The position numbers were made by a program, and so were the translations under genes. From an uncultured Actinomycetota bacterium (lineage in GTDB: Bacteria; Actinomycetota; Actinomycetes; Mycobacteriales; SCTD01), in NCBI GenBank assembly GCA_963761695.1, contig CAVXIB010000015.1:91807-155806 (forward strand): a DNA stretch of 64,000 nt, given 5' to 3'. This document shows, piece after piece, positions 28,610 through 31,829 of this stretch; position 1 is the stretch's first letter, and each line of letters starts with the position of its first letter. The notes beneath the pieces are model-generated. The model did not search any database. It worked only from the letters and a program-made list of their open reading frames with translations, and was not told the DNA's origin.

Positions 28610-29284
28610 TCAGCCGGCCCTGCGCACCTCGCCGTCGGTGTCGGGCGGGATCGGCCGGATGATCCCGGCGCTGATGACCTCGTTCGCGAGGCGGCTGCGA
28701 CGGTTGATGCCCTCGGCGATCCGGAACTTCTGGTAGAGCCGCAACAGGTGCTGCTTGACGGCCGCCTCGGTGACGACGAGCTCCTCGGCGATGTCCCGGG
28801 CGGTGCCGGGCGCGACGAAGGCCTCGTGCTGCAGCGCGGGCCGGCACAGCGCCACCAGCACGTCGCGCTCGCGTCGCGTGAGGTCGGGCGCGGAGACGCG
28901 TCGCAGCTCGATCGTGTTCTCGCCGGACGCGGGAGCGAGACCACCGACCCGCGTGCGGGCCGACCCGAACGACAGGACGTCGCCCTCGAGCAGGATCCGC
29001 CTGCTGACCGGACGGCCGTTGACGCGGGTGCCGTTCACCGACAGGCCGAGGTCGGACACGTACAGGTGGCCCCCGCGCCGGACGATCTCCGCGTGCAGCC
29101 GCGAGACCGTCGGATCGGTGAGGCTGATGTCGACCCCGGGCCCCCGCCCGACCGTCGTCACGTCCGCATCGAGCGGGAAGGTCTCCGCGCTCTCGTCGAG
29201 TCGGAGATGGGGGGTGTCCACGGACGGGGTCCTCTCGCTGCCGGCATGCTGCCGCGGCGTTACCCCACCTGGCGTGACGCACAC
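28610..29284 (-). CDS. FHA-domain / LuxR-type HTH transcriptional regulator
   Basis: The N-terminal FHA domain reads TVGRGPGVDISLTDPTVSRLHAEIVRRGGHLYVSDLGSVNGTRVNG. The C-terminal LuxR HTH reads LTRRERDVLVAL...IAEELVVTEAAVKQHLLRLYQKF. The start may instead be the GTG at about 29221. Confidence 0.8.
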   Translation of the reverse strand: MCVTPGGVTPRQHAGSERTPSVDTPHLRLDESAETFPLDADVTTVGRGPGVDISLTDPTVSRLHAEIVRRGGHLYVSDLGLSVNGTRVNGRPVSRRILLEGDVLSFGSARTRVGGLAPASGENTIELRRVSAPDLTRRERDVLVALCRPALQHEAFVAPGTARDIAEELVVTEAAVKQHLLRLYQKFRIAEGINRRSRLANEVISAGIIRPIPPDTDGEVRRAG

Positions 29285-29352
29285 CGTTGCAGCGGCGGGG
29301 CTTCCGGCGTGGGAGCGTCGCTACAGTGCGACGGTCGACGGAGGGAGTCGCC

Positions 29353-29610
29353 GTGCAGGTGCGCGAGGCGCCCGCCCTGGTCGTCCTGACGGCGGTGGCC
29401 GCGGGACTGGCGCTGGTGGCGCTCGGTCGGTGGCGCGTCGGCCTGCTCGGCATCGGCCTGACCCTGCTGCTGGCCGCGGGCCTGCGCTCGAGCCTGCCGC
29501 GACGGACCAGCAGCCTGCTCGCCGTCCGCAGCAGGGGGCTGGACGCCGCGGTGCTGCTGCTGCTCGGCACCGGGCTGCTGCTCCTGGCGAACAGCATCCC
29601 GGCGGGCTGA
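29353..29610 (+). CDS. DUF3017-like small membrane protein
   Basis: ORF 29287..29610, with the start placed at the GTG at 29353 behind GAGGGAG. It has three TM segments and WR.G...G and VRSRGLD motifs of the kind seen next to folD in other actinobacteria. Confidence 0.5.
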   Translation: MQVREAPALVVLTAVAAGLALVALGRWRVGLLGIGLTLLLAAGLRSSLPRRTSSLLAVRSRGLDAAVLLLLGTGLLLLANSIPAG

Positions 29611-29629
29611 CCGGCCGTACCCTTCCCGG

Positions 29630-31829
29630 GTGTCCACCGCCGAGCTCCCCGCGGTGGTCGGCGGCCTCTACCGGCTGCTGCCGGAGCCGGGGCAGGCGAC
29701 CGCCCACGGCACGCGCTGGGCCGGCACCCGGCTCACCGACGGCGTGCCGGTGGAGCTCGAGGTGCTGTCGCCGGCGCTCCGGGGTGATGCCGCGACCCTG
29801 TCCCGGCTGGCCCGCGACGGCGACGCGCTGCGGTCGCTGGCCGGCAGGCACGTCGTGCGTGTGCTGCACGTGCTGCTGCCCGCAGACGACGACGCCGCTT
29901 CCGACCAGGAGCCCGACAGCGCTCCGGCGGTCCTGGTCCGCGACCGGTTCGCCACGGTGGTGCTCGCCGACGCCCGGCGCCAGGAGGGGGGCACGCTGTC
30001 GCCGCGCACCGCCGTCGGGACGGTCGTCGACGTGCTGTCGGGGCTGGTGGAGGTGCACGCGGCCGGGCTGGTGCACGGCGCGCTGACCGAGCGCGACGTC
30101 CTGCTCGACGTCAGCGTCCCCCTCCGGACGGTCGTCCGCGTGACGGGCTACGGGGCGGCGGCGCTGCTCGGCCGACCGGCCGACGTCGACCCGGCCCCGG
30201 GGTCCGGCGCGGAGCCCGGTCCTGCCGACGACGTCTGGGCCGCCGGCGCCCTGCTGGTCCTGCTGCTCACCGGCGACCTCCGCACGCCGACCGACCGCCT
30301 GGCGGGGCTCGGCGTGCCGCCGGCCCTGGTGGCGGCCGTGGCGCCGATGCTCGCCGCCGATCCCGGCGTCCGGCCGACCGCCGCGCAGGCGAGGGAGAGG
30401 CTGACGTCGGTGGCGGGCCTGGACGCCCTGGCCGCGCTCCCCCCGGCGAGTTCGCCCGAGCCGGTGCGCCCCCCTGTACCGGTGATCCTGGCCAAGCCCG
30501 TGCCGGCGCCCACCCCGGTCCCGTCCCCGACGCCGGTTGCGACACCCACGCCCGTCCCTGCGCCGACCCCCGTTCCTGTGCGCCGGTCGGCCCGCCGCCG
30601 TTCCTCCGCCCACCCCCGTTCCTCCGCCGACCCCCGTCCCGCAGCCCGCACCGGCCGCGCCGCCCCCGGTCTCCGGGCCCGACGCCCCCGTCGTGGAGCC
30701 GCCCCGCGCCGGACCCCGGCGGCGCCGGGTGGCGGCCCTGTCGGGGGTGGCGGTGCTCGCCGTCGTCGCGTTCCTCGGTGGGCTCGTCGCCGCCCGGACC
30801 ACCGGCGACGCCAGCCCCGCGGAGGTGGCCCCGGCGGCGGGCCCGGTGGCCCTCGAGCCGCACGTGTTCGCCCCCCTGACCCTGCCGGGAGGGCTGGTGC
30901 TCGCCCGCACCTGGACCGTCGAGGACGGGGGCACGACCCTGCGCGGGGTCACTGCGGTGAGCAACGACGGTCGGTCCCCCGTGCGGACCGGCGTCGACGA
31001 GGTCGTCCCCAAGTCGGTCGCCGCCGACGTGGCCGACCTCGCCCTCACCCCGACCCCTGACGAGGTGGTCGCGGCAGATCCGGTGGTCCGCTACGTCGTG
31101 TCCCTCGACCCGGGGGAGCGGCAGAGCTGGACGTTCGTGGCGACGCTGCGCGAGCCCGTCACGACCGCCGCGCGCTTGGCCGACCTCGCCGCCGACGGTG
31201 AGCGGGCCCGCGCCGCCCACGAGGCGGACCTGGCCCGGGCCGGCGCCGCCCGGCTGCTGCGCCTGTCGGTCAGTCCGGCGACGGTCCGGCTCCAGCCCGG
31301 TCAGGAGATGAGCGTCGTCGTCACCGGCCGCCTGGCCGACGGCCGGGTGGTGCCGGGAGCGCAGGTGCCCGGCATCTCCGTGCGGTCGGCGAACACCAAT
31401 GTCGTGCAGACCCTCGGCGTGCGCCTGCGCGGCCGGGCCCCGGGCCGCGCCTTCGTCGTCGCCCAGGCGGGCGAGGTCCGCACCCAGGTGCTCGTGGTGG
31501 TCCTCGCCCCTGTCGCCGCCCCGCCGCCGCCGCCGCTGCCGACCCCCGTGCCTGCTGCGCCCTCGGTGCGGCCGTCCCCCACGGCGCGGCCGACGCCGAC
31601 GGTGCGGCCGACGCCCCGGCGCACCACGGCGCCTGCCCGCCCGGCCACGACCCGGCCGGCGCCCGCCCCCACCCGGACCGCCGCCGCCCCGCGCCCCTCG
31701 CGCGCGACGCCCGCTCCCGCGCCGTCGCGCACCACCGCCGCACCCCGGGCGTCGGCGACCCGCAGCCCCACGCGGGCCCCCAGCCCCAGGCCGACGGCGA
31801 GCAGCCCGCGCCCCCGTCCCACGTTCTGA
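29630..31829 (+). pseudogene. membrane pseudokinase with an extracytoplasmic Ig-like (Big_2-type) domain, one frameshift in the Pro-rich linker
   Basis: ORF 29630..31060 has a kinase-like fold, but the catalytic residues are replaced: VELEVL for VAIK, HGALTERDVLL for HRDLKPxNxLL, and TGYG for DFG. The sub-domain IX-like DVWAAGALLVLLLTG is retained. After the PTPVP repeats the frame moves near 30580 into ORF 30537..31829, which contains a TM helix, an ectodomain with a Big_2-like block ([30 protein letters not shown]...) and a Pro/Thr/Arg tail. Confidence 0.7.

Follow-up and report, generated by a model that had tools for sequence, protein, structure and literature searches.

Introduction

In Mycobacterium tuberculosis, the FHA-containing transcription factor EmbR is encoded adjacent to its cognate kinase, PknH. 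Bacterial pseudokinases are almost unexplored by experiment, and the sole worked example, MviN-FhaA, concerns post-translational control of cell-wall synthesis: once PknB has phosphorylated it, the pseudokinase MviN recruits FhaA through the FHA domain of the latter (PMC12599244). FHA domains also occur together with DNA-binding domains, e.g., in EspM, an FHA and helix-turn-helix (HTH) regulator of ESX-1 genes (PMC7002343), and an FHA+LuxR architecture has been catalogued in Nocardia and Rhodococcus as a census entry without function (Santos et al. 2012, PMC3466318). Here we describe a locus in which an FHA-LuxR regulator, a small DUF3017 membrane protein and a membrane protein with a kinase-like domain lie side by side, within a 64,000-nt stretch (the window, G+C ~75%) of contig CAVXIB010000015.1 (assembly GCA_963761695.1, positions 91,807 to 155,806) from an uncultured Actinomycetota bacterium. 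An earlier reading of the letters alone (the sequence-only reading) had claimed these three genes for 28610-31829, and every element was found there; its view that the combination had not been characterised went too far, given EmbR, MviN-FhaA, EspM and the FHA+LuxR census. The locus has the look of a variant within the Ser/Thr-FHA signalling already known from actinobacteria, built around a widely conserved regulator-DUF3017 pair to which one lineage has added a predicted pseudokinase, possibly as a docking platform.

Loss of catalytic motifs in the kinase-like domain

The three genes and the parts of the kinase-like protein lie as follows in the window.

28610-29221, minus strand: regulator with an FHA domain and a probable LuxR/GerE-type HTH domain, 203 aa, GTG start at 29221
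29353 or 29359 to 29610, plus strand: gene of the small DUF3017 membrane protein
29630-31829, plus strand: gene of the kinase-like membrane protein, in two frames
29630-30445, plus strand: predicted cytoplasmic pseudokinase domain (alignments, AlphaFold2, Foldseek)
29759-29761, within 30068-30109, within 30140-30154 and 30230-30274, plus strand: E44, HGA, GYG and DVW of that domain, respectively
30446-30728, plus strand: Pro/Thr-rich juxtamembrane linker with 18-nt repeats (30551-30637) and a +1 frameshift
30729-30794, plus strand: single transmembrane helix preceded by RRRR, N-in C-out (hydropathy scan)
30855-31247, plus strand: extracytoplasmic beta-sandwich (30855-31157, motif GVDEVVPKSVA), then a long helix (31161-31247)
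31248-31511, plus strand: candidate Big_2-like Ig domain, only in the window's closest relatives
31512-31829, plus strand: Pro/Thr/Arg/Ala-rich extracytoplasmic tail ending in SSPRPRPTF and a stop

Residues of the kinase-like domain were checked in a HMMER alignment with StkP and in a 14-member alignment of the family, and both bear out the losses that had been read at the VAIK, HRD and DFG motifs. The beta3 Lys of VAIK is replaced by a Glu (E44) that is invariant in the family, HRD has become H149-G150-A151 (H-G invariant, third residue Ala or Asp), and DFG has become G173-Y-G175 (both Gly invariant, middle residue Tyr or Trp), so that the degraded state of all three catalytic motifs is conserved in 14/14 members (bacterial pseudokinase class, PMC12599244). 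Neither the Gly-rich loop, which is degenerate, nor the alphaC Glu is conserved in the family, and between GYG and DVW the activation segment lacks 12 residues that StkP has, with other members ~11 residues shorter still. A further reported loss, catalytic-loop Asn to Asp, holds for the window's close relatives but not as a family feature, the position being variable in the other members. The C-lobe signature that was said to be retained, DVWAAGALLVLLLTG, is present, and D201 of its DVWAAG motif is invariant in the family.

The fold itself appears intact. Pfam Pkinase (PF00069) scores 16.3 bits on this domain, under the gathering cut-off of 31.7, and structural modelling, which the sequence-only reading had proposed as a check, returned a confident kinase fold with the catalytic-residue positions substituted: the AlphaFold2 model, from a 30-sequence alignment, has a predicted local distance difference test score (pLDDT) of 92.5 and a predicted template modelling score (pTM) of 0.90, and its top Foldseek matches are PknB, PknA and PknI of M. 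tuberculosis (template modelling score 0.7-0.8, E ~1e-13). The model has no helix of at least four residues at 215-230, the G-helix position. On these alignments and this model, we consider the kinase-like domain to be a genuine pseudokinase, with the fold kept and the catalytic residues lost. It is predicted to be unable to phosphorylate, because Glu stands in place of the ATP-binding Lys, HGA and GYG in place of the catalytic motifs, the Gly-loop is degenerate and the activation segment is shortened. To judge from the family alignment, the loss is old and maintained rather than a recent decay, and the replacements are fixed in every relative. An N-lobe acidic insertion of 10 residues (within DDAASDQEPDSAPA, ~29900-29940) is seen in the window's protein only, being absent from the other family members, and the model pLDDT drops to 76-79 there.

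A single gene in two frames

The kinase-like gene is split between frame 2 (29630 to ~30589) and frame 0 (~30591 to 31829), which together encode a protein of 732 aa with a single transmembrane helix. The frameshift, earlier placed around 30580, is indeed present as a +1 shift at ~30581-30590, inside an imperfect 18-nt repeat (30551-30637, PVPAPT units), and skipping one base at that site restores the 732-aa frame. The two frames are read as one gene because intact single-ORF (open reading frame) relatives exist: L002, a locus of a close relative, encodes a 726-aa protein at the same position, and five further intact proteins (P0001, P0124, P0128, P0134 and P0272; 418-576 aa) run in the order kinase-like domain, linker, transmembrane helix, ectodomain.

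The frameshift might also be real, in which case the gene would be decaying or would yield two products, i.e., a soluble kinase-like protein that ends in a junk tail, plus a membrane-bound ectodomain protein. Consistent with this, the site is a slippage-prone 18-nt repeat, the deposited annotation holds the C-terminal half only (P0273, 366 aa), and the pseudokinase gene is broken in the related locus L001 too (within 6190-8751). However, neither half contains a stop and both are well conserved, at 65% and 49% identity to their counterparts in the intact protein of L002, and the essential gene folD has a +1 error of this type within a homopolymer, being split at ~27795-27800 by one extra G in a run of G (TACGTCGGGCATG versus TACGTCGGCATG in the alignment with L002). 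Given this extra G in an essential gene, and that only folD and the pseudokinase gene are split among the 15 conserved genes checked over ~17 kb (21340-38436), the frameshift is most likely an assembly error rather than gene decay, and we regard a real frameshift as very unlikely. In the same region of L001 mdh is broken as well (a 79-aa fragment is called), which points to assembly quality: a single metagenome assembly sample (ERZ25039498; MFD02581 bins) is the source of all the closest relatives, L001-L003, and the two broken genes of L001 fit an error-prone assembly in that common sample. As this assembly carries +1 indel errors in homopolymers and repeats, apparent pseudogenes in it should not be over-interpreted.

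Linker, membrane helix and ectodomain

The reconstructed linker comprises 93 aa, among them 38 Pro, 7 Thr and 5 Ser. The RRRR ahead of the transmembrane helix places the kinase-like domain in the cytoplasm, and the helix is followed outside the membrane by a beta-sandwich that the sequence-only reading had overlooked, although it is larger and better conserved than the Big_2-like domain. No other part of the family is as well conserved as this membrane-proximal sandwich (mean column identity 66%), which occurs in all full-length members and, with the long helix behind it, is modelled by AlphaFold2 at pLDDT 82-94. It matches no Pfam family and no PDB sequence, and its best Foldseek hits are to sugar-phosphorylase N-domains and carbohydrate-binding modules at E 8e-3; assignment as a carbohydrate-binding module was not accepted, there being no significant Foldseek, Pfam or PDB sequence match.

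For the Ig ectodomain reported earlier the evidence is divided. With a profile of three sequences, teneurin-like proteins are matched in their tandem Ig repeats (E 3.9e-14), and Pfam Big_2 (PF02368) is found at E 0.01 in two of the three orthologues, but the window's own copy has no Pfam match; the AlphaFold2 model is uninformative over this domain (pLDDT < 40, shallow alignment). A Big_2-type Ig fold at 31248-31511 is, on the profile match, a reasonable but not proven assignment. The tails beyond it are Pro/Thr-rich, with 18-27-nt repeats (31558-31741), and divergent, except that the C-terminal nonapeptide SSPRPRPTF is common to the window (31800-31826) and L002 (7360-7386).

The FHA-LuxR regulator, DUF3017 and their regulatory signals

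28964-29158, minus strand: FHA domain, aa 22-86 (Pfam PF00498)
28697-28888, minus strand: probable LuxR/GerE-type HTH domain, ~aa 112-175 (sub-threshold Pfam GerE and PDB profile matches)
29260-29284, minus strand: putative sigmaB/sigmaF-type promoter of the regulator (GTGTGC 29279-29284, 13-nt spacer, GGGTAA 29260-29265)
29322-29347, plus strand: putative -10 element TACAGT (29322-29327) and ribosome-binding site GGAGGGAG (29340-29347) of the DUF3017 operon, read by eye from the sequence

The regulator protein (203 aa) is 100% identical to P0002 and has relatives at ~77% identity over hundreds of Frankiales/Mycobacteriales-type metagenomic proteins. Its coding sequence is 28610-29221, preceded by a ribosome-binding site (GAGAGGA) 8 nt 5' of the start codon, and not the longer ORF of 28610-29284, which was rejected because the extension covers the regulator's own conserved promoter. 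The FHA domain is secure (PF00498, E 3.3e-17, 63.1 bits against a cut-off of 20.7), and its phosphothreonine-binding residues R26, S40, H43, N63, G64 and T65 are invariant in 80/80 relatives. As to the DNA-binding half of the proposed FHA-LuxR architecture, Pfam GerE (PF00196) reaches 21.5 bits over 28 residues, below the cut-off of 23.5, and a PDB search with a profile of the C-terminal 100 residues gives weak matches (E 0.014-1.4; mainly GerE, NarL, VraR, ChrA and VpsT), GerE/NarL/LuxR-family proteins being eight of the ten listed and all of the top five. Because of these profile matches, and of precomputed PF00196 matches in most homologues, we accept a LuxR/GerE-type domain as probable. 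In the linker between the two domains, the window's subgroup retains Thr103 (28913-28915), within a T-I/V-E-L sequence of the pT-x-x-L type. Glu or Asp occupies position 103 in 48/80 other relatives, perhaps a sign that an acidic residue has taken the place of a phospho-switch; T103 as an intramolecular GarA-like switch was set aside on account of these acidic residues.

In line with the sequence-only reading, the adjacent small membrane protein belongs to DUF3017 (PF11222, 58.7 bits against a cut-off of 25); it has three predicted hydrophobic helices and a conserved LPxRxxGxLxVRSRxxD loop.

Of 78 related regions upstream of the regulator, 72 have GGGTA in the coding orientation, mostly 44-75 nt before the start, and GTGT usually lies ~15 nt 5' of it; 41 sequences contain the 6-mer GGGTAA, compared with 3.6 in shuffles. 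Promoters of the SigB/SigF-type stress sigma factors of Streptomyces and Mycobacterium follow GNNTN-N14-16-GGGTAY. The GTGT-N~15-GGGTA arrangement resembles these, and by this consensus the regulator's sigma factor would be of the stress type. Elements similar to the DUF3017 -10 candidate (ACTGTA/ACTCTA) are seen in related intergenic regions. Searches of 27000-33000 or 28400-32100 turned up neither an Rfam family nor a sigma70-consensus promoter nor an intrinsic terminator. In a subgroup of loci where a Ser/Thr kinase (STPK) is linked to the regulator (L124, L136, L142 and others), an inverted repeat, CCGTGAC ... GTCACGG, brackets the -10-like GGGTAA. The repeat lies ~20-75 nt upstream of where the regulator starts, in a 5' leader that hardly differs among these loci, and may represent an operator or else an RNA structure.

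Conservation of the neighbourhood

Genes around the three, the window's active kinase and the genes and loci used for comparison are the following.

26589-27119, minus strand: methyltransferase gene
27647-28505, plus strand: folD
31929-32930, plus strand: mdh
~33014-35203, plus strand: icd
56478-58220, minus strand: canonical single-pass STPK with motifs VAVKEV, HRDVKPAN, DFG and APE
L126:6804-8546, minus strand: example of a regulator-linked STPK (Pkinase 148 bits, VAVK, HRDLKPGN, DFG, polytopic C-terminus)
L131, L136, L141, L146-L148, L151 and L160: further STPK-linked loci
L168:5470-5895, L170:2741-3151 and L083:1-198: ACT_7 genes

The three-gene order was examined from both ends. Starting from the pseudokinase, the arrangement of a divergent FHA-HTH regulator, DUF3017, pseudokinase and mdh is found in 7/7 family loci with enough flank (the window, L001, L002/L003, L004, L084, L165 and L166), down to members that are 40-46% identical in the kinase-like domain. 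The DUF3017 stop and the pseudokinase start are 1-67 nt apart in every family locus, and the two genes are probably co-transcribed. L083, at first sight a locus without the regulator, was dismissed as uninformative, as its sequence ends inside an ACT_7 gene upstream of DUF3017.

Starting from the regulator, the picture differs. We surveyed 80 metagenomic loci at 65-78% identity. DUF3017 lies upstream on the opposite strand in 57 of the 60 with enough flank; downstream of the regulator stands folD in 20/41 loci and a canonical membrane STPK, placed tail-to-tail and often overlapping by a few bases, in 18/41. A pseudokinase is found in 0/80, with mdh following directly after DUF3017. The conserved unit is thus the pair of FHA-HTH regulator and DUF3017, between folD (or the STPK) and mdh-icd, and the pseudokinase, which we place outside it because it is absent from all 80 loci, is a rare lineage-specific accessory in the divergent operon of one uncultured Frankiales-like lineage. 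Conservation of the three genes, a check that the sequence-only reading had called for, therefore holds from the side of the pseudokinase but not from that of the regulator. The tail-to-tail STPKs tie the regulator independently to Ser/Thr phosphorylation, and its link to Ser/Thr signalling is real. Upstream, the loci of the STPK-linked subgroup carry mdh, next an Iso_dh-type icd and last DUF3017.

A further gene seen with the pair is that of an ACT_7 (PF13840) protein, which in 14/80 loci, as well as in named Frankiaceae and Mycobacteriales metagenome-assembled genomes (MAGs), stands between the regulator and DUF3017 and overlaps the DUF3017 start. A tight coupling thus ties DUF3017 to an ACT_7 gene on its upstream side or to a pseudokinase gene on its downstream side, and in L083 to both.

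These arrangements would also suit a pseudokinase that acts as an envelope receptor or scaffold, with DUF3017 or alone, and has no functional tie to the regulator, having been inserted once between DUF3017 and mdh, in a very stable folD-mdh-icd region, and inherited. The tightest linkage of all is that of DUF3017 to the pseudokinase, the FHA-HTH/DUF3017 pair does without a pseudokinase in every one of the 80 other loci, ACT_7 can separate the regulator from DUF3017 even at the pseudokinase locus L083, and the surrounding order purN-purH ... folD ... mdh-icd is identical in L001, L002 and L168. We nevertheless hold this to be rather unlikely, since the regulator is recurrently linked to kinase-fold membrane proteins in two ways, i.e., a downstream active STPK or a pseudokinase in the divergent operon, and since a phospho-partner is required by FHA domains and MviN-FhaA sets a precedent for a pseudokinase with an FHA protein.

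An explanation that overlaps with the foregoing makes the regulator mainly a local, phosphorylation-controlled switch of central metabolism, acting on (ACT_7)-DUF3017-mdh-icd and perhaps folD as a counterpart of GarA/OdhI at the level of transcription, with the pseudokinase a passenger. The regulator always lies between folD (or the STPK) and DUF3017-mdh-icd, the small-molecule-binding ACT_7 protein is translationally coupled to DUF3017 where it occurs, and OdhI is the regulator's best NCBIfam FHA match, limited as that match is to the generic FHA domain. However, a gap of ~100 nt separates the end of the pseudokinase gene from mdh (31829 to 31929), co-transcription of DUF3017 and mdh is only putative and no operator was identified, and we judge this explanation unlikely.

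Size of the pseudokinase family

The full 732-aa query was swamped by Pro-rich low-complexity words and gave one match; the family was hence searched with a linker-free alignment and, for the kinase-like domain, with HMMER in full. Among 1.84 billion representatives, the scan of this domain found about a dozen clusters clearly above the general kinase background, and a collection of 5.8 billion proteins yielded seven family members, one of them the window's own C-terminal fragment. A scan of GTDB genomes with a generic kinase pattern returned mostly unrelated kinases, the only orthologous loci being L003 and L004, and a scan of JGI metagenomes for the ectodomain motif [AT]G[VIL]DEVVP[KR] gave zero confirmed relatives.

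A possible docking platform for the regulator

By analogy with MviN-FhaA and EmbR-PknH, we tentatively put forward a scaffold model as a possible account of the locus. The FHA domain of the regulator would dock on a phosphothreonine that an active Hanks-type kinase had put in place. Where a lineage has a tail-to-tail polytopic STPK, that kinase would be the regulator's partner; in the lineage studied here, the DUF3017-pseudokinase membrane pair would instead offer a docking or scaffolding platform, with the Thr/Pro-rich juxtamembrane linker phosphorylated in trans or the kinase-like domain pairing with an active kinase. An envelope signal read by the ectodomain could in this way be coupled to the availability or the DNA-binding state of the regulator, whose likely targets would be the divergent DUF3017-pseudokinase-mdh-icd string and its own stress-sigma-type promoter.

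Several observations weigh against this model. No Thr at a fixed position of the juxtamembrane linker is conserved across the family alignment. Given that the adjacency of FHA-HTH and DUF3017 is near-universal, the three-gene order is little independent evidence for an interaction of regulator and pseudokinase, and the lack of a pseudokinase in all 80 regulator loci, with mdh directly after DUF3017, counts in the same direction; an insertion into the stable folD-mdh-icd region explains the neighbourhood as well as function does. The family, with ~10 clusters in 5.8 billion proteins, is tiny, and the window's only active kinase lies 25 kb away with generic similarity to the regulator-linked STPKs. 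The sequence-only reading had named this kinase as a possible partner; it is canonical but has no specific tie to the FHA-LuxR locus, and its candidacy as an orthologue of the regulator-linked polytopic STPK was rejected at 37% identity confined to the kinase domain. It is flanked by succinate-dehydrogenase-like and methylmalonyl-CoA-mutase-like genes, and its extracytoplasmic domain has no family assignment. Of the phospho-signalling module proposed earlier there remains the tie of the cassette to Ser/Thr signalling, but with the pseudokinase as an accessory rather than a constituent.

A wider conjecture, which we consider quite improbable, would have the FHA-LuxR regulator, DUF3017 and an exchangeable sensor partner (ACT_7, an active polytopic STPK or the pseudokinase with an ectodomain of new fold) form a hitherto unrecognised membrane-tethered, stress-sigma-driven phospho-switch controlling genes of the TCA cycle and of one-carbon metabolism (mdh, icd and folD) in Frankiales-/Mycobacteriales-type actinobacteria. 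In its pseudokinase version, an extracytoplasmic cue would be passed on through sequestration or release of the transcription factor.

The locus is compact and lends itself to tests of whether a dead receptor kinase feeds a transcription factor via an FHA domain. The FHA-LuxR/DUF3017 pair is the more general lead, as it is very strongly conserved at ~77% identity, abundant in soil metagenomes, uncharacterised and recurrent beside Ser/Thr kinases and central-metabolism genes with a conserved GGGTA-type promoter; once its partners are worked out, a function could be given to DUF3017, and a direct route from Ser/Thr phosphorylation to transcription in actinobacteria would stand beside that of EmbR.

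Comparison with known systems

The locus resembles EmbR-PknH in that an FHA transcription factor adjoins a membrane protein of the Hanks-type kinase fold, the version with an active STPK being that of the 18/41 related loci. It departs from it in that the window's adjacent kinase-fold protein is predicted to be catalytically dead, the FHA domain is N-terminal, and the DNA-binding domain is probably of LuxR/GerE rather than SARP/OmpR type. With EspM the regulator shares an N-terminal FHA and a C-terminal HTH domain and a weak NCBIfam match (E 0.0013; 17.7 bits against a cut-off of 550 bits), whereas EspM has ~360 aa, an unrelated C-terminal half and an esx-1/whiB6 context. The likeness to the FHA+LuxR subfamily of Nocardia and Rhodococcus (PMC3466318) lies in the described two-domain architecture and in its occurrence in Actinobacteria.

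Among the described pseudokinase classes (PMC12599244), ActPs1 has, as here, all three catalytic residues substituted, and many of its members have lost the G-helix, at whose position (215-230) our model has no helix of at least four residues; unlike ActPs1, the window's protein has no PQQ-like C-terminal domain in Pfam searches. Membership in ActPs2, which requires beta3 Lys to Arg and HRD Asp to Asn, was discarded, given Glu and Ala (or Asp) at these positions here. ActPs3, the class of MviN, is alike in architecture: both are membrane proteins with a cytoplasmic pseudokinase domain without catalytic motifs, a C-terminal transmembrane segment and an extracytoplasmic beta-rich domain, and the window's protein shows the ActPs3 traits of an activation-loop deletion and a transmembrane helix on the C-terminal side of that pseudokinase domain. 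No MviN chain appears among the 44 PDB sequence matches at E <= 1 or the top 50 Foldseek matches, in which canonical kinases score better; the MurJ flippase domain of MviN is missing and the ectodomain is different. In MviN-FhaA the phosphorylated pseudokinase recruits FhaA. The window encodes each component of such a complex, namely a pseudokinase, an FHA protein and an active STPK (56478-58220), but the FHA protein here is a predicted DNA-binding regulator whose interaction with the pseudokinase we infer.

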